Source of the DNA: an uncultured Halobacteria archaeon | Lineage (GTDB): Archaea > Halobacteriota > Syntropharchaeia > Alkanophagales > Methanospirareceae | Assembly: GCA_964400255.1 (NCBI GenBank) | Contig: CAYNTR010000001.1 | Location: forward strand, 1-61,064 | DNA length: 61,064 nucleotides | Direction: 5' to 3' | Shown here: in pieces, positions 6,043-43,730 of the stretch | How the letters are laid out: each line of letters starts with the position of its first letter | How positions within the stretch are numbered: position 1 is the first letter of the stretch | Translations under genes and position numbers: made by a program | Notes under the pieces: model-generated | Databases searched by the model: none | What the model was told of the DNA's origin: nothing | What the model saw: the letters and a program-made list of their open reading frames with translations, nothing else

Positions 6043-6505
6043 TATAGCTTCTGCCTGATTTTTTGCTTGATTTTATATGTTACTTTTTTGTTTCTGTGAC
6101 ATGAATTTTGAAATGAGGTAAAATTTAATAGCAGTCAACCAATCTCTTTTATGTTTTTTGAAATCATTTATATTTCTCCAAAATTTTTTCATATTTCTTC
6201 AGTTGTATCACAAATGTTTCCCTTTAAAAACTTTGTTCTGAAAAAACGGGGGTTTAAAGTAGATAAGATACCTTTGATGTCAGAGAATTTTATTTTTAAA
6301 AAGCTGTTTCGCCCGTACTCTCAAATTTCAACGTCCCCATCGTCATCACAAAGGTAAGAGTGAATACTCTGAGCTATAAAACGTTGTGGGAGCCTTCAAA
6401 TCCCTAACTGACTTATTCCACTCAGGTGGGGCGTTTCTTACCGCTCTTCTCTCATGATCTACTACATCGACTATTTCACACTCATAACCGGAGAATAAGC
6501 ACTAT

Positions 6506-7081: not shown

Positions 7082-7117
7082 CTTTCAGTACGAGGTTAAA
7101 AGAATTGTGCAATAAAA

Positions 7118-8416
7118 CTAACCCGAACTCAGGGGCTCGCGGTTCACGAGCTTATAGGCAACTTCTTGCGCCTTCTCCTTTAGCTCATCCTCCCCTTCTA
7201 CCTTCCGTCCCTCCATTAGGATCTCACCATCGCATATAACGGTATCAACACAACTCCCATTGGCAGAATAAACGATGTTCGAGGTCAAATTGTGGTTTGG
7301 CACAAGCTCGACCTTCCTCAAATCGAGCAGGGCAATATCGGCCAGTTTTCCTGCAGCAATAACACCGGAATTCAACCGGAACACGTGAGCTGCATGTGCG
7401 GTGGCAAGCGCAAAGGCTTCGTGTGCGGGCATGCTCGTCGGATCACCGGAAAACGCCTTATGAACCAAAGAGGCGATCTTCATCTCCTTAAACATATCGA
7501 GGTTGTTGTTTGAGGCACAGCCATCGGTTCCCAGTGCGATATTCGGGTACAAGCCTGCCCTTTTCAGCTCCTCGTAGGGCATACGCCCCGCTGCAAGCTT
7601 CATATTCGATACCGGATTGTGGACGATCTTTACGTTATGCGTTTTCATCAATTCCATTTCCTTTCTGCTGAGATGCACGCAGTGGCAGGCTATGGTTCGC
7701 GGACTCAGAAATTCCATCTCAGCCAGAAATTCCACTGGTCGCATCCCATACCTCTTCTTGCACTCTTCTACCTCCTCCTCGGTCTCAGATACGTGAATAT
7801 GAACCAGAAGATCATGCTTCTCCGAAAATTCGTTCACCCAGTAGAGGCTCTCTTGTGAGACCGTGTAGAGCGCATGCGGTCCGAGTGCAAACATGATCCT
7901 ATCCGATAATGTTTTGCTTTCTTCGTATAACGATCTGTTTCTTTGTATCTGCTCGTGTGCCTTTTCCTCGTCAAAGCCGTCGATAAAAACCGCAGATAAC
8001 AGCGCTCGGATTCCGCTCTCCGCGACTGCTCTCGCACTCCCTTTCCAGTACCAATACATATCGTTAAAAAAGGTCGTGCCCGATTTGATCATCTCCAAAC
8101 AGGCGAGTTTCGTGCCCCAATACACATCCTCTTCGGTCATCTTGGCTTCTAACGGCCATATCTTCGTCGAAAGCCATTCGTGGAGCGGCATGTCATCTGC
8201 ATAGCCCCGGAGTAAAGTCATTGCCGCATGAGTGTGCCCGTTAAAAAGACTGGGGATTGCTGCTTTTCTCTTCCCATCAATGACAAATTCCGCTTCTCTT
8301 ACCCCCGCATAACCAGTACCCGCGGCGCTTATCTCCTCTATGAGATCGCCCGCGATGTAAATATCCCGCTCCTTGCCATCCACCAGCAAGTTTGTTATCA
8401 GAATCGACCCGCTCAT
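7118..8416 (-). CDS. mtaD: Amidohydrolase: 5-methylthioadenosine/S-adenosylhomocysteine (5'-deoxyadenosine) deaminase
   Basis: Motifs NGHTHAAMTLLRGYADDMPLHEWL, VHIHVSET and LGTDG.ASNN identify an MtaD/DadD-type deaminase. ATGA overlap with the upstream gene. Confidence 0.8.
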   Translation of the reverse strand: MSGSILITNLLVDGKERDIYIAGDLIEEISAAGTGYAGVREAEFVIDGKRKAAIPSLFNGHTHAAMTLLRGYADDMPLHEWLSTKIWPLEAKMTEEDVYWGTKLACLEMIKSGTTFFNDMYWYWKGSARAVAESGIRALLSAVFIDGFDEEKAHEQIQRNRSLYEESKTLSDRIMFALGPHALYTVSQESLYWVNEFSEKHDLLVHIHVSETEEEVEECKKRYGMRPVEFLAEMEFLSPRTIACHCVHLSRKEMELMKTHNVKIVHNPVSNMKLAAGRMPYEELKRAGLYPNIALGTDGCASNNNLDMFKEMKIASLVHKAFSGDPTSMPAHEAFALATAHAAHVFRLNSGVIAAGKLADIALLDLRKVELVPNHNLTSNIVYSANGSCVDTVICDGEILMEGRKVEGEDELKEKAQEVAYKLVNREPLSSG

Positions 8417-28835: not shown

Positions 28836-29099
28836 CTAGTACGCGTGCTCACGATGGTCAATCCAGTTGAGATAAACCACCTTCTCGCTTTCGTTAGGTG
28901 TAAATATAAGTCGGTATCTCTTTGTTATTCGTGTTGATTTCTTACCGTGTAGTTCTCCCGAAAGCCAACCGCCGATGTGTAACGGATCTTCTTGTAACCG
29001 TTTAATTTTCTTATCGAGTTCTTCGAGGGCTTGCTTGTTCTTTTGGATGGATTTTAGAGAGGACAAAAACGTATTTGTTCGTTTTACTATCCAGGTCAT
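28836..29099 (-). CDS. relE: RelE/ParE-superfamily toxin (second copy, unrelated in sequence to the first)
   Basis: 87 aa. The LQEDP..G..L.G.L.G, RITKRYRLIF and VVYLNWIDHREHAY layout fits RelE/YoeB. Confidence 0.7.
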   Translation of the reverse strand: MTWIVKRTNTFLSSLKSIQKNKQALEELDKKIKRLQEDPLHIGGWLSGELHGKKSTRITKRYRLIFTPNESEKVVYLNWIDHREHAY

Positions 29100-29174: not shown

Positions 29175-29390
29175 TCAAAGCTCTGCAAGCAAATCCTTGA
29201 CAGACGTAACTTCCTTAACCCTGCCAGCTTTGATATCCTGGTCACTTTTGCGAAGTGCTTCCATCGTTTTGGGATTGCTCAGAATTTCAACTGAATCCAC
29301 AAGTGCGTCGAGATCCTCTCGAGTAACCATCTTCTCTTCAATTCTCTTCAGTGCTTCGTAAACCTCTTGAATTGTTACCGATCCAGTCAT
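29175..29390 (-). CDS. Putative antitoxin
   Basis: 71-aa ORF upstream of the toxin. ALRKSDQDIKAGRVKEV resembles the C-terminal region of Phd/YefM-RelB-type antitoxins. Confidence 0.55.
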   Translation of the reverse strand: MTGSVTIQEVYEALKRIEEKMVTREDLDALVDSVEILSNPKTMEALRKSDQDIKAGRVKEVTSVKDLLAEL

Positions 29391-29462: not shown

Positions 29463-30374
29463 CTAAAGTTCTAAGCCCAATCGACTCGCGAGTATCAAAT
29501 AAAACCCAGCCAGGCCTTTCCAGCGTCCCCACTTTTCGGCGATTTTGCGTGCCTCGACGCTGGAGATTTTGAGATCGTTACAGTAGTAATGCGCGATGTG
29601 GCGTCGTAGGCCGAGGTCATCCGCTGGGAATGCCTCTAATTTATGCATGCCGCGGAGCATCGTGAGCTCTGCCGTCCATACTCCGATGCCGCGCACTTTA
29701 CAGAGTTCCTTGATAATCGCCTCCGCGTCCTCATAGGTTTTGAAATGCTCTAAATCCAGCTCGCCTTTAACAATAGCAGTAGCAATACCGTGGATATACT
29801 CTGCCTTTCGCATACTCAAGCCGCAGTTACGGAGTTGCTCAACCGTTCCGTGAGCGATGTTTTGGGGTGTCGGAAATGCGTAATATACTTTCTCATCCAG
29901 TTCCAGCGTAGCACCAAACGTTTTGATCACGTTTCGTTCTAACACATGTGCCACATTGAGCGAGATCTGCTGTTCTATTATTGAATCGACCAACGCTTCG
30001 AAGACCATCGGTGTTGTCGGACTTTTTAACCCCTTTAATTGCCGAGTCAAGGTTGACATAATCGTATCGTTTTTGACCTCCTCGTAGAACGCAGTAAGGT
30101 CACAGGTTAAATTGAAAAGGGAAGAGACTATTTCTTCAGCGCGTTTTTGGTCGTTCGTAGAAAGTTCAGCGTTTGATTTTAATTCAACTTCTAATTTCGG
30201 GTTGTCTATCCTTCCTGATGAGGTGATCGTAACAAGTACTAATTTCTCGTTCAGGCGCAGAACCTGCCAGTACTTGCCATGTTCATAAGTACGAATGTGG
30301 GGATCACCACCAGCAAAAATCCTAGCACTTAAATGGAAATCAAACGGTGAAACAGGTGTTATCGTGAGGTTCAT
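29463..30374 (-). CDS. alkA: DNA-3-methyladenine glycosylase II (AlkA, HhH-GPD)
   Basis: AlkA-like N-terminal domain and an HhH-GPD core (VRGIGVWTAELTMLRGM...FPADDLGLRR). Confidence 0.8.
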   Translation of the reverse strand: MNLTITPVSPFDFHLSARIFAGGDPHIRTYEHGKYWQVLRLNEKLVLVTITSSGRIDNPKLEVELKSNAELSTNDQKRAEEIVSSLFNLTCDLTAFYEEVKNDTIMSTLTRQLKGLKSPTTPMVFEALVDSIIEQQISLNVAHVLERNVIKTFGATLELDEKVYYAFPTPQNIAHGTVEQLRNCGLSMRKAEYIHGIATAIVKGELDLEHFKTYEDAEAIIKELCKVRGIGVWTAELTMLRGMHKLEAFPADDLGLRRHIAHYYCNDLKISSVEARKIAEKWGRWKGLAGFYLILASRLGLEL

Positions 30375-30408
30375 AGCTCAGTACTAGCCTTAAAGTGGTA
30401 TAAATGTT

Positions 30409-31068
30409 TTATAACAACCCTTTCTCTTTCATGCTCAAATATCCCTTCTTCGAGACAATAAGATGATCCAATACCTTGATACCTAAAACCGATCCTGCCT
30501 CGACGAGTTGTTTTGTCATGAGAATATCTTGCTTGCTCGGTTCCAAAATGCCAGAAGGATGGTTATGCACGAGAATAACAGAAGCCGCTCGATCTGTAAT
30601 AGGATCAGCGAAAACCTCTCGTGGATGAACAAGGTTATGATCAAGTAATCCAACCGTTATTATTCTGTTGCCAACAATCTCGCCCGCTCCGTTTAACGAA
30701 ATACAAACAAAATATTCTTGCTTTTTATCCGCTATATTGGATACAAGCGGTATAACATCTGTCGGCGAAGTGATCTTTACAGCTTCTTTTATGAGATATC
30801 GACGTGCAAGTTCAAAGCTTGCCATTATTTGACACGCTTTTGCCGATCCTACGCCTTCGATTTTCTGGAGATTTTCATAAGTGAGTTGTGCGAGGTCGTT
30901 CTTCAGGGTTTTAGAGATTTCTCTGGCTATTTGAAAAGCATCCATTCCCGGAACTCCCTTTCCGATGATAATTGCGATTAATTCAATGTCGGAAAGCGCT
31001 TCAGGGCCTTTGCTAATGAGTTTTTCCCGTGGGCGGTCAAAATCAGGCAGTTCTTTGATTCGTTTCAT
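30409..31068 (-). CDS. radC: RadC-like JAB/MPN domain protein
   Basis: ELPDFDRPREKL...SDIELIAIIIGKG, an HhH (IEGVGSAKA), and the JAMM motif HNHPSG....PS..D. The ATG at 31068 lies 1 nt after the hsdR stop. Confidence 0.85.
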   Translation of the reverse strand: MKRIKELPDFDRPREKLISKGPEALSDIELIAIIIGKGVPGMDAFQIAREISKTLKNDLAQLTYENLQKIEGVGSAKACQIMASFELARRYLIKEAVKITSPTDVIPLVSNIADKKQEYFVCISLNGAGEIVGNRIITVGLLDHNLVHPREVFADPITDRAASVILVHNHPSGILEPSKQDILMTKQLVEAGSVLGIKVLDHLIVSKKGYLSMKEKGLL

Positions 31069-31069
31069 C

Positions 31070-34000
31070 TTATCCAACTCCAACCGGAAATGAGAGCTCA
31101 GCAGATACAGGAACATAATCCTGATAGAGGTTGATTGCTTGCTCCATTATGGTGCTCACCATTGGGTCGTAGATCTCAGGCGTGAACCCTTCCCGTTTGA
31201 GCAAGCGCTTGACACTCGCGCGTATTTTGCTTTTGACATTCTCATGGTCCGTCCAATCAATGCTCAAGTTGCTTTTGATCGTGACCACTAATTTCTTAGC
31301 TAACTCCAGAAGCTGTTCATCTGATTTGATATGTTCTCTTCCTTGGGCGACGGCATCGTAGAATGCGATTTCTTCATCAGTCAGACCGAGTTGTTCACCA
31401 CGATGTTCCACGGTTCGAAGATCTCGTGCCATGTCAACCAACCGTTCAATCACTTCGGCAGATTCTATTGTGCGGTTCTGATACCTCTTGATCGTATTTT
31501 CCAGCATCTCCTTGAACGAGCGGTAAGTTACGACGTTCTTTTTCATTTTCCCGGTTATCTCATCATTGATTAGTTTCTTAAGCACTTCGACCTGCAAATT
31601 CTTGTGCTCGATCTTCTGGATGTCATTCAGGAACTCGTCACTGAGAATGGAAATTTCTGGGCGGTCCCTTTCTCGGAATCCGAATATATCCACGACTTCA
31701 TCTGAGGAGACGCCTTCGGAGACGAGTTGTTTGATTGCTGTCTCGACATCTTCGGATGCGTCCCTTACAGAAGGTGTGTATTTTCGTATACTTCTGCGGA
31801 CGCTCTGAAAGAAGAGCACATCGTCACGAATATCAGTAGCCTCCTTATGGGGGCTGACCAGCGCAAAAGCCTTTGACAAAGCGGTGCACTGCCTGAGGAA
31901 GCTGTCTTTTGTTTCATCGTCCGTGGTTACCGCATTGTGAGCTCGTTGAATGAGATAGGTTAACTCTACGGGCGCTAACCGCCGCCAGTTTGCATATTCG
32001 ATGCCGTGGAAGAACGAACACACGATATCGTATTTCTCTTGTAAGACGGTAATTGCGTCCTCAATGGCGATCATGGAATCGTGCCGTACTTCATCGCTGT
32101 AGACTCTGAGTGACTTCTTGAGGTCGTCGGCGATACCAATGTAGTCCACGATGAGACCACCTGGTTTATCTTTGAAGACGCGGTTCACTCTCGCAATCGC
32201 TTGCATGAGGTTGTGATCACGCATTGGCTTATCGACATACATGGTGTGAAGGCATGGCGCATCGAAGCCGGTCAGCCACATGTCACGAACAATGACAAAC
32301 TTCAGCGGATCGTTCGGGTCTTTGAACCGTGCTTTGACATCTTCCTGTTCCTGTTTGGTCATCCTCGGCAACCCGAAATCCTCTGGCCGGGTTATGACCA
32401 CAGCAGTCTCGGGCGCCTCGGGGATTTGTCCGAGTAATTCGTACATTTTAACGGCGATGCGTCGACTCATGCAGACGATCATTGCTTTACCTTTGAGTTC
32501 TCGTTGATTGAAGTGCTCAACGATATCCTGAGCAATTTGTTTCACCCGAGTTTCAGTGCCGACGACAGCTTCAAGACGTGCCCATTTGGATTTCAGCTTC
32601 TCTTTGATGATCTCTTCTTCTCGTTCGGTAATCTCCTCGAATTCTTCGTCGATGAATTCATTGGTGAGGCGGACTTTAGCCAGCCGGCCTTCGTAATAGA
32701 TCGGAACCGTGTTTCCGTCTTCCCTTGATTGCCGCATCATATAAACGCTGATATAGTCCCCGAACGTCACCCGCGTTGAACGGTCTTCAAGTTCTATGGG
32801 CGTGCCGGTAAATCCGATGAATGACGCGTTAGGGAGCGCATCCCGAACGTTCCCGGCGAGTAACCGATATTGGGAGCGGTGCGCCTCGTCCGCAATGACG
32901 ATGATGTTCTTTCGCTCAGAGAGCAAGGGATATTTCTCGCCATTCTTGGTCTGGAACTTCTGGATCGTCGTGAAGATGATGCCGCCTGCAGGGATATTGA
33001 GCTTCTGCTTGAGATCCTCGATGTCTTCAGCCTGTTTCGGGTAGGGTATCAAATCCATCGCCTTAGCGAAGTTATCTTTGTATATTTGGTTATCTAAATC
33101 GTTTCGATCGGTCAGAACGAGAATAGTAGGATTCTCAAGCGCGGGGTGTTTAATGATTTTGGCGGTGAAGAAGACCATGGAGAGCGATTTCCCGCTGCCC
33201 TGCGTGTGCCAGATAACCCCGATCTTGCGGTCGCCTTCTTCTGCCGTTGCTCGCAATGTCTCCTGCATCGCACGATTGACGCCGTGATACTGATGGTACA
33301 TGGCCATCTTCTTAACGACGGTGTCGCGATGCGTTTCAAAGAGAATGAAGTTCTGGATGATGTCCAGCAAGCGCGATTTCTCGAAGATGCCTTTGATCAT
33401 GACCTCTAATTCGGGCCTACTGTCGGGCGGTTCCATACCATTCTCAATCACACGCCAGGGGGTGTACCAATCCCAGTCAGCTGTAAGTGTCCCGTGCCGT
33501 GCCTCCTTAACGTCGCTGGCGACGAGAATTTCATTGTAGTGATAGAGCTGCGGGATTTCGCTCTTGTAGACTTTGATGTTCTTGGTAAACGCTTCCTTTG
33601 CCCGCTCATAGCCTACCGGATTCTTCACTTCAATATCCACCAGTGGCAGGCCATTGACAAAAATCAAGACATCAGGCCGGCGATTATGCTCTCCATCAAC
33701 AACGGTGAACTGGTTCACCACGAAGAAATCGTTATTCTCTGGATTCTCGAAGTCAAAGACCCGTGCGAGATCGCCTCTTCGCTCTCCCTCCGGTGTGGTT
33801 ATTTCCACCTTAACGCCGTTGACCGCCATCACATGAAAGCGGTGATTATTGACGTACAGATTCGGCGAATCGAGTGTGAGGAGCTGGTGCATGGCATCCT
33901 CAACGGCATCGTCAGGCAAGTGCGGGTTCAGCCTCTCCAGAGCGGCTCGCAGCCTCCGTTTGAGCACAACGTCACTGTACGAATCCCGTTCCGGGAAGAG

Positions 34001-34111
34001 CCCGCCGGGACTGATGTCCGGTCCGAAGGCTACCTCGTAATCCAGCTCTTGGAACCATGCGAGTGCCGGTTGCTCCGCAAGAACATCCTCAGAAAGCGTT
34101 GCTGAGGTCAT
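31070..34111 (-). CDS. hsdR: Type I restriction enzyme R subunit
   Basis: N-terminal PD-(D/E)xK (PDVLIFVNGLPLVDIEVK), an SF2 helicase (QGSGKS, ADEAHRSQ) and a C-terminal DUF3387-like region. Confidence 0.95.
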   Translation of the reverse strand: MTSATLSEDVLAEQPALAWFQELDYEVAFGPDISPGGLFPERDSYSDVVLKRRLRAALERLNPHLPDDAVEDAMHQLLTLDSPNLYVNNHRFHVMAVNGVKVEITTPEGERRGDLARVFDFENPENNDFFVVNQFTVVDGEHNRRPDVLIFVNGLPLVDIEVKNPVGYERAKEAFTKNIKVYKSEIPQLYHYNEILVASDVKEARHGTLTADWDWYTPWRVIENGMEPPDSRPELEVMIKGIFEKSRLLDIIQNFILFETHRDTVVKKMAMYHQYHGVNRAMQETLRATAEEGDRKIGVIWHTQGSGKSLSMVFFTAKIIKHPALENPTILVLTDRNDLDNQIYKDNFAKAMDLIPYPKQAEDIEDLKQKLNIPAGGIIFTTIQKFQTKNGEKYPLLSERKNIIVIADEAHRSQYRLLAGNVRDALPNASFIGFTGTPIELEDRSTRVTFGDYISVYMMRQSREDGNTVPIYYEGRLAKVRLTNEFIDEEFEEITEREEEIIKEKLKSKWARLEAVVGTETRVKQIAQDIVEHFNQRELKGKAMIVCMSRRIAVKMYELLGQIPEAPETAVVITRPEDFGLPRMTKQEQEDVKARFKDPNDPLKFVIVRDMWLTGFDAPCLHTMYVDKPMRDHNLMQAIARVNRVFKDKPGGLIVDYIGIADDLKKSLRVYSDEVRHDSMIAIEDAITVLQEKYDIVCSFFHGIEYANWRRLAPVELTYLIQRAHNAVTTDDETKDSFLRQCTALSKAFALVSPHKEATDIRDDVLFFQSVRRSIRKYTPSVRDASEDVETAIKQLVSEGVSSDEVVDIFGFRERDRPEISILSDEFLNDIQKIEHKNLQVEVLKKLINDEITGKMKKNVVTYRSFKEMLENTIKRYQNRTIESAEVIERLVDMARDLRTVEHRGEQLGLTDEEIAFYDAVAQGREHIKSDEQLLELAKKLVVTIKSNLSIDWTDHENVKSKIRASVKRLLKREGFTPEIYDPMVSTIMEQAINLYQDYVPVSAELSFPVGVG

Positions 34112-35175
34112 GTTTTATTCTTTTCTCGATATAGCTTCCAGATTTCATCCAAGGACTTTTCTTTAAGGGTGTCTTTAATCGCTCTTATTGCTTCTCGTGA
34201 ATATTTGTAGTATTTGGATTTACCAATGGGAATCGCCTTGCAATAAGTTTCATTATCTTTCAGCTTCAAGTACCAAATTAAAGCATCTGTCTTTCTCTTT
34301 GACAATCCTACCGCTTCTGCCAGTTGATCTCTTCCCATCGTATAGTAACTCAGCTCTTTTACCTTTCTTATTCCCACGACCATCGCTCCTGGCGTTCCCT
34401 CAGGAACCACCTGTATTGGAATTCCGTCCTTCTTGGTAAAACGAAGATTGAGCGATAGCCCTGAGCCTTCAGTGGTCATGTTTAGAGAGGCAACCCCCGG
34501 GAAGATCGTTTGCCAATCGATTCCGCCCGCTATCTTCGTCAATTTTTTCCGCAGTTTTGCATCAGTTACCGGAACATGCTCCCCACTGATAGCGCTTTCC
34601 ATTATATCTAACGCTCGTAATCTAGCTAAGGCTAATGACTTTTTCCGGCTACCCGGCATGAGCATTGCCTTGATGTGCTCTATTTCATTCTCGAACAAAA
34701 CATCAATATCCTTGGGCGGAACGGTAGAAATGGGAAGAACTCGTTGTGGCATAAATTCTGAGAGATCTTTACCAAAAACGGTTTTTAAAATGTCTTTAAA
34801 GAGTGTCACGCCCCCTTGCATAAGCAGATAATGCTGATCCTCAGGGATATCAATGAAATAATGCTGTTCAGCATCTCTCATGCTGTTGATCATCTGAAGC
34901 GTCAACGCTTGCTCATCGGTTAAAAATCTCACGTTACCCGCACCAATAGCCAGTCGTACACATTTATCAAATCCAACCGTCTGTTTAGACTCTTTATCGT
35001 AAATTTTTGCCCTTCTCTGTAAAAGAGTGGCCTTGAGGAGCATCTCAAACGCATGGTCAAGTAATATCAAAGAAGCATGGATTCTCCCTCTATCAAAGGG
35101 TCGGTTAAAAAATTCAATGCTGAGCAGCAAAGAATCGGTGGCTTTGCTCAGCAGGATCTTAACTATTCTCTTCAT
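34108..35175 (-). CDS. DUF3644-like protein embedded between hsdS and hsdR
   Basis: SLLLSIEFFNRPFDRGRIHASLILLDHAFEMLLKA resembles the DUF3644 N-terminal signature, with a C-terminal HTH-like region. The ATG at 35175 gives the shortest overlap with hsdS; ATGs at 35199 and 35244 are also possible. Confidence 0.45.
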   Translation of the reverse strand: MKRIVKILLSKATDSLLLSIEFFNRPFDRGRIHASLILLDHAFEMLLKATLLQRRAKIYDKESKQTVGFDKCVRLAIGAGNVRFLTDEQALTLQMINSMRDAEQHYFIDIPEDQHYLLMQGGVTLFKDILKTVFGKDLSEFMPQRVLPISTVPPKDIDVLFENEIEHIKAMLMPGSRKKSLALARLRALDIMESAISGEHVPVTDAKLRKKLTKIAGGIDWQTIFPGVASLNMTTEGSGLSLNLRFTKKDGIPIQVVPEGTPGAMVVGIRKVKELSYYTMGRDQLAEAVGLSKRKTDALIWYLKLKDNETYCKAIPIGKSKYYKYSREAIRAIKDTLKEKSLDEIWKLYREKNKT

Positions 35176-36424
35176 TCTTTGCTCCCGTTTTATCACCATT
35201 ATTCCCTCGTATTTGACCCGAAAGAAGTTTCGGGAGGAGTGCATCTCTGAGATTCACTAATTGACGAGATTCTATATTGTTATTTATGAAAGTCTCTATC
35301 AAGGGATTCATTAGTTCATTCATTTTTTCAATGATTTCTTTTGGGGGTATTAATACATAGGTCTCAGATAAATGATGACGTTGAATATGACCCATTGTTG
35401 TAGCCTTTCCTTTGGCAATATGCCGAAATATAGGCAAATAAAATTTAATCCATTGATAATAGAACCATTTAGGGTAAGTTTGAGATGTAACTTTAAATAG
35501 ATGTTGATTTAGCGCACCTTTACCACCGCACCAGATACAAACTTCAAGGCTACCTGACCATGAAAAAAGAATATCGCCATCATCAACAATATATCGTTTA
35601 TCAATGTCTGGACTCGCTTTATCACTCGATTCTGTTATACCTTGCCGAAGTTCCCTTATCTTGATCCCAGGCAAATAGTTTTCATCTTTTGGTGGGTATT
35701 TCTGTAGGGCTAAACCGTTTAAGAAATTTGCTATCTCATCAATTGGTTTCGCCACCCACCCCTTCGGAATCTTCTTTCCCAGCTCCTCAGAATAGACCAT
35801 CTCGCCGCCGCTTGACTTATACGGCTGCCCCTGCCCGTTCGGGAACTCGAAGTCCACGAACCAGTGTTTGAAGATCGCCTGCGCCATCGCCTCCAGCGTT
35901 CTGTTCATCGCATGGTTGAGCTCGATCTTGTCGTCTAAGGCAGATAAAATAGAGGCGATCTTTTGCTGCTCGGGGAGGGGTGGAAGAACAATCTTTAAAT
36001 CGTCAAACGTCTTTTTTGTAATCGTATCAAATACCGTCCCATAAGAGAGGGAGTTTATCTTTTCCATCAGAGTTTTAAGTTTATAGAACAGGAACAGGGG
36101 ATATACACCTTCTTTTGCTATTAGACCATAACACGTTTGATTAAATGCCATTGAATAGGGTAATAGACAAGTCTTTCCAACGGTCCCTCGAGATGTAATT
36201 ACAATTGTATTTCGTGGCAATAATTTTGTGGCACTGTTTTCCAACCCTTCTTGAGTTATTGTTTTTTCAGTTTCATAAATGTATCTGCCATTACAATTTG
36301 CTATGTCCTTAGCACTAGCCCACTTTATATTTCCACCCCAATATTCTGGTTTATTTGTTTTTGGCGTTCCGCCTATCACAATATCAGCAATCTCAGAAAT
36401 AGCGAGCTCTTGTTCAGAACCCAT
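35159..36424 (-). CDS. hsdS: Type I R-M specificity subunit
   Basis: Two target-recognition domains, each beginning GGTPKT-like or ending FP.., separated by conserved coiled regions (LPPLPEQQKIASILSALDDKIELN). Confidence 0.9.
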   Translation of the reverse strand: MGSEQELAISEIADIVIGGTPKTNKPEYWGGNIKWASAKDIANCNGRYIYETEKTITQEGLENSATKLLPRNTIVITSRGTVGKTCLLPYSMAFNQTCYGLIAKEGVYPLFLFYKLKTLMEKINSLSYGTVFDTITKKTFDDLKIVLPPLPEQQKIASILSALDDKIELNHAMNRTLEAMAQAIFKHWFVDFEFPNGQGQPYKSSGGEMVYSEELGKKIPKGWVAKPIDEIANFLNGLALQKYPPKDENYLPGIKIRELRQGITESSDKASPDIDKRYIVDDGDILFSWSGSLEVCIWCGGKGALNQHLFKVTSQTYPKWFYYQWIKFYLPIFRHIAKGKATTMGHIQRHHLSETYVLIPPKEIIEKMNELMNPLIETFINNNIESRQLVNLRDALLPKLLSGQIRGNNGDKTGAKNEENS

Positions 36425-36440
36425 ACTCCAGCTCCTCCAT
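36415..36440. repeat. Junction repeat D (remnant ..MEELEYGF* fused to the hsdS start MGSE)
   Basis: CAGAACCCATACTCCAGCTCCTCCAT matches the hsdM/AlbA_2 junction at 22 of 23 nt. Confidence 0.85.
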
Positions 36441-36498
36441 TACTATCATCTCAACTAAAACCATCTTTAAGCCTTTTATGCCTTCAAAGAGAGAGTTC

Positions 36499-36912
36499 CT
36501 AATCAAACTGCACACCTCCTTTCATAATCATAGAATCATCAACATAACGGAAAGATTGCGGCGGCACGAAATCTGGTTTTAATTCTTCAGGATCAACAAA
36601 ATGCTTAAAAATATGAAGAGATTGAATTTCAATTGCAAAACCTTCCTTATATCCGTTAAAATAGCTAAAGAAATCATCCTCGTTAATCCCTGACACATCT
36701 TTATATTTCTTCCACAGTACTTCAGGGGCTTCTTTTACGACTTCACCAATTTTAAAATAGCCGACAACCTTTTTTTGAGGAGAAGCGGAATAGATAAATA
36801 CTTTAGCTATGTCCCGGTGCTTCTTAAATATAGTCTTCCTGAACTCATATCTCTTATTGCCATTCATTATCTCTTTTACGTAGATTGGCTTAATCGAAAG
36901 TAAAATGTCCAT
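36499..36912 (-). CDS. ASCH (PUA-like) domain protein
   Basis: ILLSIKPIYVKEIMNGNKRYEFRK......VFIYSASPQKKVVGYFKIGEV..APEVLW is the canonical ASCH pattern. Its start overlaps the upstream ORF by 23 nt. Confidence 0.75.
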   Translation of the reverse strand: MDILLSIKPIYVKEIMNGNKRYEFRKTIFKKHRDIAKVFIYSASPQKKVVGYFKIGEVVKEAPEVLWKKYKDVSGINEDDFFSYFNGYKEGFAIEIQSLHIFKHFVDPEELKPDFVPPQSFRYVDDSMIMKGGVQFD

Positions 36913-38371
36913 CTATACCACCTCTTTCTTTTATTTTCAAATATTTATCATGGTCTATTTCAGTGATGGACTGGGGAGCGCCTCTTAATATATCGTTTTC
37001 TATCAAATCATTTAGTATCAATGGGTTTTCTATATAGAAATGCCAACTGAAAAATATTAGTAACGTGGGCTTTTTTGCCATTTCTTTAATTTCTTCATAA
37101 GTATACACGCTTCTTTTTCCCACATATCGCATTATTTCGTTTTTTGTTAAATTACCTCTGTAAACCCTTTCAACAACTCCCAGAGCAGTTATACTGCTCA
37201 TATCACCGGAGCGATAAAACAAAACAACATCTCCACTATTGATTTTTATGCTTCTTGAATGAGAAAGATATGCTTTTTTTATCGTGTTTCCTTCAACAAT
37301 GAATTGCCCGAGATATTCAGGTAAGGTTGATTGCCTTTTATAATCCGTGAATAATCTATCATGGTATTCTGGACGAATCGGAATTACGAATTTATTTACC
37401 TTTCTTCCATCATATAACGACGGGTAGTATTTCTTGCAGATTTCTTGGTATGCTATCTCGGTTCCTTCATCCGGTTTTAATTTCTTTAGATAGACTTCTT
37501 CTCCTCTTTCATTCACAGCTGCTCGGTAGAACCCGAATTCAGTTATCAATTCGATCAAGAGGTCATTTTCTTTTGTGAAGTGTGTTAGATACATTTCGTC
37601 GATATTGTTTCGTACACATAGATTTACAGTCAGTTTGATAAAAAGCTCGCCAATTTTATAACCTGTATGAGAAACTTTCATGGTGGATATCTTTAATCTT
37701 CTTTTTTTAGGTAACGGTGGAATGGAATCAATAGCTTCCTCTTCAATCTTATAGATAAGTAAAGCACCGATCTTGTGATTGCCGTAGTATACCCAGCATT
37801 TTCTCCCTTCCCTGGAAATTTTATTAAACCATTGTTCAAATTCACCATACTCCTTTTTCAATGAGTCGAAAAATGGATCTTTGATATCCAAGTTATGCAC
37901 TGGAACTTTCTGGATTGCCGGAGGTGGTGTCACATCGGTATTCAAATATCTCTTTAAAAAAACTAAGCCATCCTCGATGTTAAACACGCGATCATCGACT
38001 CCAATTTTCTTAGATTTCGTGTATATGCCCCTATCTTCTGTTACTAGAAAATCGATTGCGTTTTTATAAAGGCTAAAAAGCAATGCATTATCCACACGTT
38101 CATTATGGCTCTGTGGCACCCCAACTATTGACACAAAATCAGGGTCAGGGTCTATTGGGGACTCCAAATATCTATAGGTTTTTATTTTAGAGAGAATAAC
38201 TCCTTTTCTCTTTTCATCTTTATCTCGATAAATCTCGCTAACAGAAAGAGGGTGGATCAAAATCTCCGCTTTCAGCTCACTTAAAAGTCTCAATAGTTCC
38301 TGCAAATTGTCAGGGAGAACATTGTTATCCTCTCTGTATATGAAAATATTTGTATCTATCAAGACTCTCAT
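36890..38371 (-). CDS. PIN / GNAT-like / PUA-like three-module fusion protein
   Basis: The PIN module has MRVLIDTNIFIY and LVTEDRG. The central region has a GNAT-like loop (MKVSHTGYKIGELFIKL, EFGFY). The C-terminal beta-rich module has KFVIPIRPEYHDRLF and SGDVVLFYRSGDMSSITALGVVERVY. The PIN call is solid. The other two are inferences from motif shape. Confidence 0.55.
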   Translation of the reverse strand: MRVLIDTNIFIYREDNNVLPDNLQELLRLLSELKAEILIHPLSVSEIYRDKDEKRKGVILSKIKTYRYLESPIDPDPDFVSIVGVPQSHNERVDNALLFSLYKNAIDFLVTEDRGIYTKSKKIGVDDRVFNIEDGLVFLKRYLNTDVTPPPAIQKVPVHNLDIKDPFFDSLKKEYGEFEQWFNKISREGRKCWVYYGNHKIGALLIYKIEEEAIDSIPPLPKKRRLKISTMKVSHTGYKIGELFIKLTVNLCVRNNIDEMYLTHFTKENDLLIELITEFGFYRAAVNERGEEVYLKKLKPDEGTEIAYQEICKKYYPSLYDGRKVNKFVIPIRPEYHDRLFTDYKRQSTLPEYLGQFIVEGNTIKKAYLSHSRSIKINSGDVVLFYRSGDMSSITALGVVERVYRGNLTKNEIMRYVGKRSVYTYEEIKEMAKKPTLLIFFSWHFYIENPLILNDLIENDILRGAPQSITEIDHDKYLKIKERGGIDGHFTFD

Positions 38372-39486
38372 GATACTCCCTCCATCATCTTCTTTCCCTT
38401 CTCCTTTTCCAAATCGCCTTCCACCTCTTCTAAGAGCCCTGCCAATTGCCGTGGGTCCGGCAGTTGACCGCTGAGTTCTTTCGGCAGTTTAAGCGTGAGC
38501 TTGTATTCGGATACTCCAATGGGTTTGCTCATATCCCTGAGTGAGTATTCTGCGATAAGCCCCTTTTTTGTCTTGCATAATATGATCCCGACAGAAGGCT
38601 GGTCATCTGGGTGCCGCACCATGTCGTCCAGTGCCGAGAGGTAGAAGTTCATCTTCCCGGCGTATTCCGGCATGAACTCGCTCATCTTCAGGTCGACGGC
38701 CACCAGACACCGCAACCGATGGTGGTAGAAAAGCAGATCAATATAAAAATCGCGCTCTGCCACTTCCAGGTGGTACTGGTTGCCCATGAAGGCGAATCCC
38801 ACGCCCAGCTCGAGCAGGAACTCTGTGAGCTTTTCCCGCAACGCCTTCTCGAGATCGCGCTCCTTTGCATCCCTCGCAATGGTGATGAAATCGAAGATGT
38901 ACGGGTCTTTAATCGCCTGTTCCACCAGTTCAGATTGTGGCGATGGGAGCGTCTGTGGGAAATTGGTAGTTTTGGCGGCAACAGCCTGCCTTCCATAAAG
39001 GTCGCTCTCTATCTGGTGAACCAGGACATTGCGGCTCCAGCCGTTCATCTTGGTCTGCTCTGCATACCATAAACGCTCCTTAGAATTTTTAACTTTCTCC
39101 AGCAAAACCACATTATGCCCCCATGGAATTTCTGCGACAGCTTGTGGCAGATTTACAACGTCAATATCTCGCACAAGTTGTGCGAGTTTCTCAACATCTT
39201 CAGAATATGCCAAATAAAACGCGCGCATCCGCCAGATATTGCTTGGAGAGAACCCCTTCACATCTGGAAACTCCCGCCGTAGATCCCGAGCCAACTGCTC
39301 CACAACACCTTTACCCCAGCTCGTTTCCTCCTGTTTCTCAACTATACTTTTACCAATATCCCAGTAAAGAGCAATTAACTCCCTGTTAACAGACAAAACC
39401 GCTTTGGTCTGGGCAATTCTAATACGCTCTTTCAGTTCGTCGAGGAATTCTGGATACCCGGATCGTTCTATCAGCTCAGAATCCAT
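38368..39486 (-). CDS. DUF1016 / YhcG-family PD-(D/E)xK nuclease
   Basis: The family signature is AQTKAVLSVNRELIALYWDIGKSI...WGKGVVEQLARDLRREFPDVKGFSPSNIWRMRAFYLAY. The nuclease core is DLLFYHHRLRCLVAVDLK. Confidence 0.85.
   Translation of the reverse strand: MDSELIERSGYPEFLDELKERIRIAQTKAVLSVNRELIALYWDIGKSIVEKQEETSWGKGVVEQLARDLRREFPDVKGFSPSNIWRMRAFYLAYSEDVEKLAQLVRDIDVVNLPQAVAEIPWGHNVVLLEKVKNSKERLWYAEQTKMNGWSRNVLVHQIESDLYGRQAVAAKTTNFPQTLPSPQSELVEQAIKDPYIFDFITIARDAKERDLEKALREKLTEFLLELGVGFAFMGNQYHLEVAERDFYIDLLFYHHRLRCLVAVDLKMSEFMPEYAGKMNFYLSALDDMVRHPDDQPSVGIILCKTKKGLIAEYSLRDMSKPIGVSEYKLTLKLPKELSGQLPDPRQLAGLLEEVEGDLEKEKGKKMMEGVS
38379..38403. repeat. Junction repeat C (..EKGKKMMEG at the DUF1016 3' end)
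   Basis: The 25-mer CCTCCATCATCTTCTTTCCCTTCTC is identical to 39496-39520. Confidence 0.9.
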
Positions 39487-40630
39487 ACCCCAGCTCCTCC
39501 ATCATCTTCTTTCCCTTCTCAGTAATTACATATCTCTGCTTGCTGCTTCGGGGCTTATCCGGGATGGTCATGGCCAACCATCCGGCCTCCAGAGCAGGCA
39601 GGATATATGCTTTCCGAAGATGCCATCGATCCACAAGCGCCAGTATCTTCTGAATCTCCTCCCGGGATTTCGGCTCTGCACAGGCAGCCAGCATCGTTCT
39701 AACTTGTGGGGTAACTTGTGGGGTAACTTGTGGCCTTCTATCGAATATAACGGTGAAGAACGAGGTGAACTCATACCGGGGCTCGGGTAGGCCGCTGGAG
39801 ACCATCATCTCTTTCATCCGGGTTATGCCCGACCCTATCTTTTCCACCGCTCCGATCCGGTGGAAGAAATCGGCGATCATCGCGTTCCTGCGCACGCTCT
39901 TCTTACCGAGGTCTTCCGGTTTCATTCCCGGTGGTAACCCGCCGGGATCGGCTATCTCCACCCGGTCCCGGTACACCTCTACAGAAATGTTCGCGGACTC
40001 GAAATGGTAGTCACGATGCATGACGGAATTGAGCACCGCCTCACGGAGGACCTCTTCCGGAATCTCCAGAATCTCCTTCCTTTTCAAGCCGGTAATCTCA
40101 TATTTCAATGGCAGATGCATCTTCAGGAAGAGCATTGCCTGCTTCACATTTTCCATGAGATTGCCTTTCAGCTCTTTTCTATCCAGAATATCAACCTTGT
40201 CCGTACCCGCGAGTAACACACAATCGACGGTAGCATGCCTCAGAAATCGTATCGGCTCCCGGGCAAAGAAGAGAACGCCAGTATTCGTGAATAGCAACCT
40301 TTCGTCGTGCTGTTTTGCAACACCGAGATTTACGAGAACATCCTCGGTACTCATGCCGGTGGATGATACCCCTGCACTATCCAAAATCTTCAAAGGTACC
40401 GGAGGATCACAGCCCCGAGCAATACTTTCCAGCTTTGAAATCTGGCTATTAATGTTTGAAACGCCCACAACCTTCCTATCATTATCCATCCCCACGAGGA
40501 TATGACCTCCCCCGGAATTGGCGAATGCCACCATCTCACGATTGATCGAACTGGAAACTGATCGTTTATACTCTATAAACTGACCCTCCGGCTGAGAGAG
40601 CATCATGTCCAAGCTCTTCTCAGAACCCAT
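39476..40630 (-). CDS. AlbA_2 (Schlafen-like) plus HATPase_c_4 plus wHTH protein
   Basis: The AlbA_2 domain is shown by [10 protein letters not shown]....[29 protein letters not shown]. The HATPase_c_4 domain is shown by [41 protein letters not shown]. The C-terminus looks like a wHTH. Confidence 0.75.
39477..39520. repeat. Junction repeat B (..[13 protein letters not shown] fused to MDSE)
   Basis: The first 23 nt match junction A at 22 of 23. The last 25 nt are identical to junction C. Confidence 0.9.
39699..39734. repeat. In-frame 12-bp x 3 tandem repeat
   Basis: (G/C)TAACTTGTGGG repeated three times on the plus strand encodes [11 protein letters not shown] in the AlbA_2 protein linker. 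Confidence 0.9.
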
Positions 40631-42200
40631 ACCCCAGCTCCTCTAAATTCGCTTTTATCTCGTCCCTGAGACCCTCTGCTCGCTCAAACTGCGCGGCAAG
40701 TTCTGCAACAAGTCGTTGCATTTTCTCCTCAAACGGCTCATCGTCGTCCTCGACCTCTTCCGTGCCAACGTACCGACCCGGGGTGAGCACGTACCCGTTT
40801 TTTCTTATCTCATCGAGAGTAGCGACCTTACAGAAACCCGGAGCGTTTTCGTACTCCCGCATTCCTGCTTCACCGCGATGCGCGTGGTAGGTATCCGCAA
40901 TTTGCTTGATCTGCTCATCTGTCAACTCGTTGTGCGTCCGGTCCACTTTCCGGAAGAGCTTGCGTGCATCGATGAATAACGTTTCACCTCTACGGTTGCG
41001 CTGCTCATTTTGCGCTTTGTTCTTGGTGACGAACCATAAACAGGCCGGAATGCCCGTGGTATAAAACAACTGCATGGGCAATGCGATCACGCAATCCACG
41101 AGATCCTCCTCAATGATCTTCTTCCGAATCTCGCCTTCGATACCGCCCACGGACATCGAGCCGTTCGCCATCACAAATCCAGCAATCCCGTTGGGCGCTA
41201 AATGATAGATGAAATGCTGGATCCACAGGTAATTAGCGCTTGAATTTGGTGGCGTGCCGTATTTGAGCCGGACGTCACCCTGCACCCGGTCAACGCCCCA
41301 CTCGCTCACGTTGAACGGCGGATTCGCGAGAATACAGTCGGCACGCAAATCCTTGAATTTGTCGTCCCAGTAGCTGTTCCCGAGCTGGATGTTGCCCTCA
41401 ATACTCCGAATGGCGAGGTTCATCTTACAGATCCGCCAGGTCGTATCGATACTTTCCTGCCCGAAGATCGAGATATCGGCCCGCTTGCCGCCGTGTGCTT
41501 GGATGAACTTGATGCTCTGGACGAACATGCCGCCGGAGCCACACGCAGGGTCGAATATGCGGCCGCGATAGGGCTCCATCATTTCAACCAGGAGTTTGAC
41601 GATGCAGCGCGGCGTGTAAAACTCGCCACCTCCTTTGCCTTCCTGTTGCGCAAACCGCCCGATGAAATATTCGTAGACACGGCCGAGGATGTCTTTCGCG
41701 ATCGCATCGACGGTTCCAAACCCGATCGTGCTGAAGAGGTTGATGATCTCACCTAACGTAAGATAATCGATATTCGACCGTGCATAGATCTTTGGGAGGA
41801 CACCGCGGAACTGCTTCGGGTTCTCCTTTTCGATCGCTACCATAGCGTTGTCCACCAGCTTGCCAAGATTTAGATTCGTCGCATTCGCCATTAAAGACGA
41901 CCACCGGGCCTCTGGCGGCACCCAGAAGATGTTCTCGCTGAGATATTCGTCTTTCTCTTCAAGTGCATCGGAGATGCCGTAGTATTCGAGGTTTCCGGGA
42001 TCTTTCACCGCTCGGTTCAGATACTGCTGCCGCTCGACAAAGGCATCGGAGATGTATTTCAAGAAAATAAGACCCAGTACGATGTGTTTATATTCGGCGG
42101 ACTCGACGCTCCCGCGCAGTTTGTCCGCAGCCTTCCAGAGCGATTCGGCGAAATTGAGGTCGCCATTCTCGTTCGATTGTTGCGGTTTTTTGTTGGGCAT
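40620..42200 (-). CDS. hsdM: Type I R-M N6-adenine DNA methyltransferase subunit
   Basis: HsdM_N region, AdoMet motif ([10 protein letters not shown]) and catalytic NPPF. Confidence 0.95.
40621..40643. repeat. Junction repeat A (hsdM ..EELGYGF* fused to MGSE of the next gene)
   Basis: CAGAACCCATACCCCAGCTCCTC is the reference copy of the junction motif. Confidence 0.9.
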
Positions 42201-42320: not shown

Positions 42321-43730
42321 ATGCTGAGTACGAAAATGATCCTCATTCGACCGACGAGAAGCATCTGCCCCGTCTGTTACCGTCCGATAGATGCAACTGT
42401 CTACGAAGCGAACAGCGCCGTATGGATCGCGAAAAGTTGTGAAGAGCACGGCACGTTCAAAGATCTCTGCTGGTCTGATTCTCAGCTTTATCAGCAATTC
42501 CAAGCGCGAGATTTAGAAGGAGCAGGCAACCGAAGCCAAGGGATTGCAGAACAGAGCGAAGAATGCCCCTTCGCCTGCGGCCTGTGCCCACAGCACGGCT
42601 CTTCCACTGTTCTGGGAGTGATCGATGTGACTGAGCGCTGCAACCTGAGCTGCCCAACCTGCTTTGCAAAGAGTGATACTAATGACGCTGACACAGACCT
42701 TCCGCAAGAGAAAATCAAAGCAATAATCGACAATTTTGCTTCGAATACCAACGCTTCCGGATTGCAGTTCAGTGGTGGTGAGCCCACGCTCCGAGTTGAC
42801 CTCCCGGAGCTAATTAAATACGCACGCACCAAATTCGAGCACGTGGAAGTGAACACGAACGGCGTGAAGATGGCTGCGAGCGTGGACTATTGCAGTGAGT
42901 TAGAATCAGCAGGCTTGAGTGTGGTGTATCTTCAGTTCGATGGCGTTACTGAGGAGCCCTATGAAAAATTAAGAGGGCGAAACCTGCTTGACGTTAAGCT
43001 CAAAGCAATCGAGAACCATCGCAGCGCAGGCCCGAAACCCGCGATCGTACTCGTGCCGACCATCGTCAAAGGCGTAAACGACGATCAGATTGGTGATATA
43101 ATACGGTTCGCTATTGAGAACAGCGACATTATCCGTGGCGTCAATTTTCAGCCGGTGTCGTTCTGCGGTCGAACCTCACACGATCATAACGACCGGATAA
43201 CAGTCTCTGATGTCATTCATAAGGTCGAAGACCAAACAGGGTTTCTTCGGACCGATGATTTTTATCCACCATCCGTGATGAGCGTGCTGCTCGGTACGTT
43301 GGGCAAATCAGAAGTGGGCTGCCATTTCTCCTGCGGCGCGTTCTCTTATCTCGTGCTCACTCAAGAGAAAAATGGGACAAAAGTAGAGCCGATAACGAAG
43401 TACGTGGACATTGAGAAATTAGCCGTCGCATACCAGAAAACTAGAAAGATACCGCTCTTAACCGCACTAAGAAGTCTCCATCCCGGTCTGTTAAAAGAGC
43501 TCTTTATCAGCTTCATCAAAAGCAGCGATTACGAAGACTTGAGCGACCTCCATTTTAATCTGCTCTTCATCGGCGCGATGCATTTCATGGACCCCTACAA
43601 CTTCGATTGCGCACGAGTCCGGAAATGTGTAGTTCACTATGGGCTGCCCGATGGGAGAATCGTGCCCTTCTGCGCTTACAATACCATACACAGGAATGGG
43701 AAAAATCCAAATCACACAAACGTCCTTTAA
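42321..43730 (+). CDS. Radical SAM protein, MJ0619/Tes (tetraether lipid synthase)-like
   Basis: N-terminal zinc ribbon (ICPVCYRPIDA...CEEHG), CPFACGLCPQH, the radical SAM triad CNLSCPTCF, and a C-terminal MHFMDPYNFDCARVRKCVVHY..PDGRIVPFCAYN. An alternative ATG lies at 42336. The family recall comes from memory, not a search. Confidence 0.5.
   Translation: MLSTKMILIRPTRSICPVCYRPIDATVYEANSAVWIAKSCEEHGTFKDLCWSDSQLYQQFQARDLEGAGNRSQGIAEQSEECPFACGLCPQHGSSTVLGVIDVTERCNLSCPTCFAKSDTNDADTDLPQEKIKAIIDNFASNTNASGLQFSGGEPTLRVDLPELIKYARTKFEHVEVNTNGVKMAASVDYCSELESAGLSVVYLQFDGVTEEPYEKLRGRNLLDVKLKAIENHRSAGPKPAIVLVPTIVKGVNDDQIGDIIRFAIENSDIIRGVNFQPVSFCGRTSHDHNDRITVSDVIHKVEDQTGFLRTDDFYPPSVMSVLLGTLGKSEVGCHFSCGAFSYLVLTQEKNGTKVEPITKYVDIEKLAVAYQKTRKIPLLTALRSLHPGLLKELFISFIKSSDYEDLSDLHFNLLFIGAMHFMDPYNFDCARVRKCVVHYGLPDGRIVPFCAYNTIHRNGKNPNHTNVL

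Follow-up and report, generated by a model that had tools for sequence, protein, structure and literature searches.

How does a type I restriction-modification (R-M) operon take up six additional genes and still keep most of its stop and start codons in contact? The question is raised by a 61,064-nt stretch of archaeal DNA (the window; contig CAYNTR010000001.1 of assembly GCA_964400255.1), in which nine open reading frames (ORFs), all on the minus strand, fill positions 30409-42200 in the order hsdM, AlbA_2/HATPase_c_4 gene, DUF1016 nuclease gene, M11A, M11B, hsdS, HEPN (DUF3644) gene, hsdR and radC. The coordinates, the gene order and all eight junction distances in an earlier note on this DNA were reproduced from coordinates and start codons: read from hsdM to radC, the first four junctions are overlaps (11, 11, 4 and 23 nt), the fifth is a gap of 74 nt, the next two overlap again (17 and 4 nt) and the last leaves 1 nt between the genes. 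The 17-nt overlap of hsdS with the HEPN gene assumes a start at ATG 35175, where the PADLOC PDC-S19 profile begins, and the 1-nt gap between hsdR and radC assumes ATG 31068, the start of the RadC NCBIfam profile. Antisense ORFs of 153-203 amino acids (aa) within the operon matched no family and were treated as spurious.

The source is a metagenome-assembled genome (MAG) of 2.06 Mb in 142 contigs, and the closest relative of its hsdM belongs to a Methanophagales (ANME-1) MAG (81% identity). The best explanation of the locus as a whole, which we hold to be likely, is an 11.8-kb type I R-M island in an ANME-1 (Methanophagales-like) archaeal MAG, flanked by radical-SAM and DNA glycosylase genes. 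Its core is hsdM, hsdS and hsdR-radC, and four extra units lie in two variable slots: hsdM-hsdS, with the AlbA_2 gene, the DUF1016 gene and the M11 pair, and hsdS-hsdR, with the HEPN gene.

Junction repeats in the island

The tight spacing of these genes is not due to chance: a single 27-nt element, ATGGAGGAGCTGGGGTATGGGTTCTGA (repeat family D2), makes up both 11-nt overlaps and recurs just ahead of hsdS, and for this element no copy beyond these three was found in the 2.06-Mb genome. Copy J1 (TTAGAGGAGCTGGGGTATGGGTTCTGA; 40620-40646, minus strand) contains the hsdM stop codon and the ATG of the AlbA_2 gene, and copy J2 (ATGGAGGAGCTGGGGTATGGATTCTGA; 39476-39502, minus strand) the AlbA_2 stop codon and the DUF1016 ATG. 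Copy J3 (36414-36440 within 36414-36464, minus strand) lies in the 74-nt gap as a diverged relic of an hsdM-type tail. Translated from ATG 36464, it gives a mini-ORF of 16 codons that ends in MEELEYGF before its stop codon and overlaps the hsdS ATG by 11 nt; this mini-ORF may act as a relay toward hsdS. The element matches the hsdM/hsdS junction that is canonical for this hsdM family, in which a GGAGG Shine-Dalgarno (SD) motif stands 8-9 nt ahead of the hsdS ATG and the hsdM stop codon follows 11 nt on.

Junction copies flank the AlbA_2 gene on both sides and the DUF1016 gene at its 5' end, with the relic third copy between the M11 pair and hsdS. As a result of these border copies, the AlbA_2 and DUF1016 proteins open with the first codons of HsdS (MGSE and MDSE, for MGSE in HsdS, which continues as MGSEQE), and the AlbA_2 protein closes with the last codons of HsdM (ELGYGF, where HsdM ends in NLEELGYGF).

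Aligned with the related metagenome contig L178, which has no AlbA_2 gene, the DNA of the window loses homology at 40620, where J1 has its last base, and regains it at 39501, within J2, so that the borders of the AlbA_2 insert coincide exactly with the repeat. A second break in this alignment runs from 38375 to 34096. As far as sequence can tell, these borders show that recombination within the conserved junction of the hsdM 3' and hsdS 5' ends brought in or removed the genes inserted between hsdM and hsdS, and that the overlap geometry of the parental junction was kept at the AlbA_2 and DUF1016 boundaries.

A second, exact repeat of 25 nt (GAGAAGGGAAAGAAGATGATGGAGG; family D1) occurs at 38379-38403 and 39496-39520 (minus strand), in the 3' ends of the DUF1016 and AlbA_2 genes, and the pair is unique in the genome. 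An origin in the DUF1016 gene was considered and dropped, since the sequence is that of the native C-terminus (TEKGKKMIEE) of the winged helix-turn-helix (wHTH) domain of the AlbA_2 family; the copy in the DUF1016 gene is probably a gene conversion tract. We also ruled out that the M11 pair had split a DUF1016 tail ending in a junction, as the DUF1016 orthologues of L008, L178 and L179 share the native type of tail.

The junction scar across the hsdM family

Among genome-derived loci from many bacterial and archaeal phyla, the tail L.ELGYG. followed by the stop codon closes HsdM in 63 of 81 hsdM-end ORFs. Genes inserted directly ahead of hsdS often carry the same tail though unrelated to one another, namely HepT toxin genes (L029, L046, L054), Hypoth_Ymh (L083) and genes for small proteins of no known family (L033, L041, L052); the AlbA_2 passenger carries it as well. 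When copies at most 90 nt from the hsdS start were counted and diverged ones, such as the window's own ELEYGF, excluded, the strict tail peptide was found near hsdS in 14 of 56 non-redundant insert-bearing loci, against 0.17 expected (Poisson P = 1e-22).

We give an even chance to the reading that the LGYG-tail hsdM/hsdS junction is a reusable docking site, at which unrelated defence or toxin cassettes are captured and lost across phyla; each cassette would be joined in frame to the first codons of HsdS and the last codons of HsdM, which would keep the translational relay to hsdS and form an integron-like array without a recombinase.

The island site and its close relatives

The island lies between a divergent radical-SAM protein gene with an HMPTM zinc ribbon (42321-43730, plus strand; Pfam) and, outside its left end, an HhH-GPD (OGG/AlkA-like) glycosylase gene (29463-30374, minus strand; Pfam and NCBIfam), beyond which ABCE1 is found. 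In G023, a genome of the same genus, about 210 nt separate the radical-SAM gene from the glycosylase gene, which makes this an empty site. L178 has, at the identical site, the radical-SAM gene, hsdM-DUF1016-hsdS-hsdR-radC, OGG and ABCE1. The empty site and this five-gene version together indicate that the whole row, radC included, is an island at a variable site. The radical-SAM flank is common to the window, L178 and L176.

Beside the glycosylase gene, other genomes of the genus have inserts of 1.6-2.8 kb of no known kind or an Eco57I-like methylase gene. In one of them (G019) a 661-aa Eco57I/MmeI-type methylase-like ORF takes the place of the type I island (L170:1343-3328). The site draws different R-M genes.

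Close relatives carry different subsets of the passengers. L177 (hsdM 85% identical) has hsdM, a 140-aa AlbA_2 remnant consisting of the N-terminus and the wHTH, hsdS and hsdR; in L178 (84%) DUF1016 is the sole passenger; the Methanophagales locus L008 (81%) combines DUF1016 with Gabija and GmrSD. L179 (80%) reads hsdM-DUF1016-M11B-hsdS, with M11A missing and the 3' ends of DUF1016 and M11A joined at similar purine-rich SD sequences. In L155 (79%, over the first 188 aa of HsdM only) a deletion has left an hsdM-hsdR fusion. No hsdM was seen in L156 (same genus, G019), a contig that starts in the HEPN gene and shares HEPN-hsdR-radC with the window at 84% DNA identity.

The L155 fusion (5360-8397) joins hsdM codons 1-188 to hsdR codons 183-1008 in frame or nearly so, with radC next: a type I locus collapsed by deletion. 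In L008 (13251-18898) the hsdS-hsdR slot contains GajB-like (UvrD) and GajA-like (AAA_15 plus OLD TOPRIM) genes on the opposite strand and GmrSD on the operon strand. Gabija and GmrSD are proven systems, and their presence in this slot supports a defence role for slot occupants. After HEPN-hsdR-radC, L156 (4201-5942) continues with a gene for a 436-aa protein without a Pfam family and one for a 144-aa EVE-domain protein (1.5e-22), a further PUA-like gene tied to the R-M lineage of the window.

In the window itself, past the glycosylase gene and beside ABCE1, there is an 87-aa ParE/RelE-family toxin ORF (28836-29099, minus strand; Pfam ParE_toxin 3e-5). The 71-aa ORF upstream of it (29175-29390) matched no family.

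The type I core

HsdM (40620-42200, minus strand; 526 aa), the methyltransferase subunit, matches Pfam N6_Mtase at 9e-112 over profile positions 2-311 of 311, together with HsdM_N, and PADLOC MTase_I at 1e-192; it carries DPACGSG at residue 217 (S-adenosylmethionine motif I) and NPPF at 293 (catalytic motif IV). HsdS (35159-36424, minus strand; 421 aa, two target-recognition domains) matches Methylase_S in two stretches (Pfam 2.4e-42) and PADLOC Specificity_I at 5e-118 (profile 7-396 of 403), and contains the conserved segments LPPLPEQQKI and LLPKLLSGQIR. DNA alignment of hsdS to its relatives is confined to the central conserved region. HsdR (31070-34111, minus strand; 1013 aa), the restriction and translocase subunit, contains the Pfam domains HSDR_N, SWI2_SNF2, T1R_D3-like and T1RH-like_C, matches NCBIfam TIGR00348 at 1e-186 and has the motifs GSGKS, DEAH and FTGTP and a PD...EVK nuclease motif.

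By domains and motifs, each of the three proteins is thus predicted to be the corresponding subunit of a type I R-M system. The profiles and catalytic motifs showed full-length hsdM, hsdS and hsdR and no inactivating lesion, the defect that the earlier note had named as a possible refutation. Its description of an intact type I locus with six co-oriented, closely spaced passengers is borne out.

Passenger genes

Three passenger units match defence-candidate families of PADLOC (5e-161 to 1e-48): PDC-S02 (DUF1016/YhcG; 4.5e-148), the pair PDC-M11A (5.4e-161) and PDC-M11B (1e-48), and PDC-S19 (6e-137). PDC stands for "phage defence candidates", families whose defence role is so far a prediction (Payne et al. 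2024, bioRxiv 10.1101/2024.01.29.577857) that were defined from their embedding in type I R-M, BREX and DISARM loci. With the Gabija and GmrSD genes in the slots of a relative, these matches uphold the link between the passengers and defence that had been proposed for the window. The domain calls made there were likewise confirmed by Pfam, PADLOC and NCBIfam, save that the DUF3644 protein is relabelled here and the Pfam hits for the PIN domain are weak.

The DUF1016 protein (38368-39486, minus strand; 372 aa) is a predicted PD-(D/E)xK nuclease with Pfam DUF1016_N and YhcG_C domains (4e-46 and 1.6e-64) and a D...DLK (PD-DxK) motif. Its orthologues (74-78%) follow hsdM in L008, L178 and L179.

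M11A (36890-38371, minus strand; 493 aa) matches PDC-M11A over profile positions 1-500 of 501, and nothing in Pfam above threshold. Its N-terminus (MRVLIDTNIFIY) gave weak Pfam PIN hits (PIN_12, E = 0.023; PIN_3, E = 0.15), and the protein also matched EVE weakly. Four acidic residues (D6, D94, D107 and D113) are invariant across 43 homologues, and homologues carry precomputed PIN_3 hits; the PIN assignment, weak in Pfam, is supported by both. In the AlphaFold (AF2) model (pLDDT 85), Foldseek matched the middle domain to GNAT acetyltransferases including GmvT (E 1e-5 to 3e-4, TM 0.5-0.66) and the C-terminal domain to a Zymomonas ASCH protein (ZmASCH, TM 0.8). The fold is accordingly assigned as N-terminal PIN, central GNAT and C-terminal ASCH/PUA-like. 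A G-x-K-I-G-E segment is conserved, and binding of acetyl-CoA is putative. M11A has more than 1400 well-conserved homologues.

M11B (36499-36912, minus strand; 137 aa) has a Pfam ASCH domain (0.0016). The 23-nt overlap of the two genes recurs in L120, L121 and L123; the pair stands alone amid housekeeping genes in Methanoperedenaceae and is embedded elsewhere in other type I loci. By gene content and sequence, M11A and M11B correspond to a fixed two-gene unit with both genes of PDC-M11, a candidate for an anti-phage role. In L179 (4840-6315) M11B is kept (75%) and M11A is gone, the DUF1016 3' end abutting sequence of the M11A 3' end and M11B start. Such a loss of the large M11A with the small M11B kept would be expected of a toxin (M11A) and its antidote (M11B). 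In the GNAT toxin-antitoxin pairs TacT, AtaT and GmvT the antitoxin is a small ribbon-helix-helix or helix-turn-helix protein, whereas the partner of M11A is an ASCH-domain protein. ASCH proteins are N4-acetylcytidine amidohydrolases (PMC6972931; bioRxiv 10.64898/2026.02.27.708502), and by analogy the M11 pair might be a writer/eraser-type RNA-acetylation toxin module.

The HEPN protein (PDC-S19; 34108-35175, minus strand; 355 aa) matches Pfam DUF3644 (2.3e-12), which is a HEPN domain (Payne et al. 2024, bioRxiv 10.1101/2024.01.29.577857). It contains the Rx4-6H motif RDAEQH (R100-DAEQ-H105) and, at its C-terminus, an EC042_2821 restriction endonuclease (REase)-like domain. Beside these two domains, no PUA, ASCH or EVE domain was found in it at E <= 10, which makes it a predicted RNase/nuclease fusion and not a PUA-like reader. 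The claim of two PUA-like readers in the operon holds in number, as two such domains exist (the ASCH-like C-terminus of M11A and the 137-aa ASCH protein), and fails for the DUF3644 protein. An orthologue of the HEPN-REase protein (91%) precedes hsdR in L156.

The AlbA_2 protein (39476-40630, minus strand; 384 aa), with partial AlbA_2, HATPase_c_4 and Fic-like_C wHTH domains, begins with MGSEKS and matches only positions 1-75 of the 118 of the AlbA_2 Pfam profile. Compared with a 469-aa homologue, about 75 residues are missing internally from the AlbA_2 region. The gene that had been labelled Schlafen-like is in this respect not intact. The gene is missing at L178, L179 and L008. Its linker contains a 12-bp unit three times (39699-39734), where the homologue has a GGVF repeat, a variable stretch of low complexity. 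A degraded AlbA_2 3' fragment (84% DNA identity) was found in the same-genus genome G015 on a contig without hsd genes (L118:791-1259). It ends in KKMLDELGYGR and a stop codon: the junction tail moved together with the gene.

RadC (30409-31068, minus strand; 219 aa), with UPF0758_N and JAB metalloprotease-like domains, matches NCBIfam at 1.5e-64 and has an intact JAB motif, HNHPSG...S..D. Its closest orthologues (82-91%) are all placed after hsdR, and more distant paralogues likewise neighbour hsd genes. In L120 (224-2784; ANME-1 GoMg4) a gene for a 326-aa RadC lies directly upstream of hsdM with a 1-nt overlap, in an operon that includes the M11 pair and a split hsdR. At type I loci RadC occurs in both positions, upstream of hsdM and after hsdR.

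Five passenger proteins (DUF1016, M11A, M11B, HEPN-REase and RadC) are complete in length, and their catalytic residues are conserved. The G+C content of the locus (35% in the M11 pair, 40-42% in hsdS and the HEPN gene, 50-53% in hsdM, the AlbA_2 and DUF1016 genes and hsdR) forms a mosaic that is compatible with separate gene origins.

Transcription and translation signals

A crude scan for archaeal TATA boxes and oligo-T tracts found no TATA-like 8-mer 20-60 nt upstream of any internal start. The longest sense-strand T run of the operon is a T7 in M11A (37956-37962); hsdS and the HEPN gene each contain a T6. SD-like purine runs stand ahead of most internal starts, hsdR excepted. In the 34-nt spacer between radC and the glycosylase gene (30375-30408), ACATTTATACC lies about 30 nt before the glycosylase ATG; this TATA-like sequence fits a leaderless glycosylase mRNA, and the glycosylase gene is probably a unit of its own. 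A bacterial promoter and terminator scan gave no signal (25 promoter-like sites against 21.3 expected, 19 terminator-like sites against 14.3) and is inapplicable since the host is an archaeon.

Frequency of gene stacking

The stacking seen in the window had been called unusual. This was overstated: in the 46 loci of the hsdM family where both hsdM and hsdR could be placed, embedded DNA lies between the two genes in 43 and is absent from 3. The distance from hsdM to hsdR has a median of 3.0 kb, and the window, with 6.5 kb, ranks 5th. The metagenome contig L123 carries a row of 11 genes: hsdM, two small ORFs, M11A, M11B, an RNase_HII-domain protein, hsdS, MNT, HepT, hsdR and a YgjP-like protease. 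It resembles the window in its M11 pair, in toxin-like genes in the hsdS-hsdR slot and in a metalloprotease after hsdR, and differs in having an hsdM of another subfamily without the LGYG tail; no junction copies were seen there.

Gene embedding in type I R-M, BREX, DISARM and Hma loci has, moreover, already been published as "guilt-by-embedding", with 96.7% of the embedded genes co-oriented and the significance of embedding termed unexplored; the route of embedding was not described (Payne et al. 2024, bioRxiv 10.1101/2024.01.29.577857). The earlier reading was right in kind, and the locus is a type I R-M operon in which defence candidates are embedded. What is added here to known embedding is the junction scar and a comparative series among close relatives.

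Alternative explanations

Several observations weigh against the best explanation given above. When each junction copy was compared with the hsdM tail of its own locus, the own tail was the best match in 4 of 9 cases and clearly not in 2. Simple local target-site duplication was dropped on this ground, as the copies are not consistently nearest to their own hsdM tail; the sequences favour exchange of cassette plus junction among hsd loci, and the scars agree better with import from other hsd loci than with duplication in place. The deletion in the AlbA_2 gene here and its decay in relatives suggest that not every passenger need function, and the PDC families are candidates only. The internal T runs could act as archaeal terminators, at least partially, and an internal promoter could lie in the 74-nt gap before hsdS.

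The alternative that survives best, which we nevertheless consider rather unlikely, is that the locus is a genomic sink, tolerant of insertions, in which only the R-M core matters and the passengers are hitchhiking or decaying cargo, a hypothesis also put forward by Payne et al. (bioRxiv 10.1101/2024.01.29.577857). The loss of about 75 aa from AlbA_2, the 140-aa remnant in L177 and the G015 fragment outside any hsd locus speak for it; the missing M11A of L179, the deletion fusion of L155 and the G+C mosaic agree with it as well. It accords poorly with five passengers that are full length and conserved at their catalytic residues, with the more than 1400 well-conserved M11A homologues and the autonomous pairs between housekeeping genes, and with Gabija and GmrSD in a relative's slots; junctions preserved in frame, in addition, imply selection on expression.

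It is also doubtful, and to a slightly greater degree, that the row is transcribed in several units, such as hsdM-AlbA_2-DUF1016, the AT-rich M11 pair and hsdS-HEPN-hsdR-radC, with the close spacing a relic of insertion. Such a division could run through the 74-nt gap and make use of the sense-strand T5-T7 runs in M11A, hsdS and the HEPN gene; the sharp drop in G+C content at the M11 pair suggests foreign DNA that may bring its own signals, and the pair is autonomous elsewhere. The arrangement itself argues for one unit: all genes are co-oriented, at 7 of the 8 junctions the genes overlap or are 1 nt apart, the starts have SD motifs ahead of them of the kind usual for genes inside operons, and internal starts have no TATA-like 8-mer in the 20-60 nt upstream.

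That genes before hsdS merely converge on one SD-plus-ATG context because translation of hsdS requires it, leaving no recombination scar, is very improbable: the element does hold GGAGG 8-9 nt before the ATG and the copies are not always most like their own hsdM tail, yet the likeness spans codons that play no part in initiation (those of GYGF and the stop codon) and the first codons of passengers (MGSE), the peptide is shared among unrelated proteins, the L178 homology breakpoints coincide with the repeat ends, and 25-nt and 27-nt near-exact identities occur inside one locus.

Comparison with known systems

The window resembles the embedded loci of Payne et al. in its co-oriented extra genes nested amid hsd genes, here PDC-S02, PDC-M11 and PDC-S19, and the Hma-embedded candidates that they characterised include a DUF3644 HEPN protein, HEC-08, as the window does a DUF3644 HEPN protein. 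It differs from them in that junction scars and a gain/loss series are visible and that the host is an uncultured ANME-1 archaeon. In EcoprrI-PrrC, an anticodon nuclease encoded within a type IC hsd locus steps in once the R-M enzyme is blocked (Payne et al., bioRxiv 10.1101/2024.01.29.577857). The window would share with it a gene for an RNA-targeting effector inside a type I operon, as predicted here. Its effectors are instead PIN, HEPN, GNAT/ASCH and PD-(D/E)xK proteins, and in Pfam, PADLOC and NCBIfam no passenger matched the ABC-ATPase and anticodon-nuclease domains of the PrrC type.

In Campylobacter jejuni, sets of unrelated rlo (restriction-linked ORF) genes reportedly lie between hsdR, hsdS and hsdM and vary among strains, as Miller et al. 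are said to have described in 2005. Those loci belong to another hsd family with another gene order. We know of no junction duplication reported for them, and a search of one literature collection for junction duplication and rlo genes found nothing relevant.

The likeness to integron cassette arrays is a functional analogy only: unrelated co-oriented cassettes, a short repeated site between them and one upstream promoter. The repeat in the window differs from an attC hairpin site in being a coding stop/start junction, and none of the nine island ORFs matched an integrase or recombinase family in Pfam or NCBIfam. Cassettes are probably exchanged by homologous or microhomology recombination.

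Proposed mechanism and significance

In the best explanation, the whole row would be transcribed from a promoter upstream of hsdM, and coupled translation, handed on from gene to gene at overlapping stop and start codons with SD motifs, would ensure that HsdS and HsdR are still made. The R-M enzyme would be the first line against unmethylated invading DNA, and the embedded nucleases separate second-line effectors of the abortive-infection type, DUF1016 acting on DNA and the PIN, HEPN and GNAT/ASCH proteins on RNA, probably tRNA. By analogy with PrrC, some of them may fire when the R-M complex is inhibited. RadC may, like the YgjP-type protease that is encoded after hsdR elsewhere, work as a protease on the complex or together with it. 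Direct junction repeats would also permit precise loss of a cassette, which would explain the differing subsets in close relatives.

Embedding in R-M, BREX and DISARM loci now serves the discovery of immune systems, and this island and its close relatives offer a readable series of it: an empty site, a five-gene island, a nine-gene island, partial deletions and border scars. The series suggests a rule by which operons grow and shrink, namely that genes come and go where hsdM and hsdS are coupled, each event restoring the junction. For ANME-1, a lineage whose virus defence is little known, three PADLOC candidates, the HEPN-REase fusion among them, stand together with RadC in one archaeal operon, so that their combinations may be tested with the type I enzyme.

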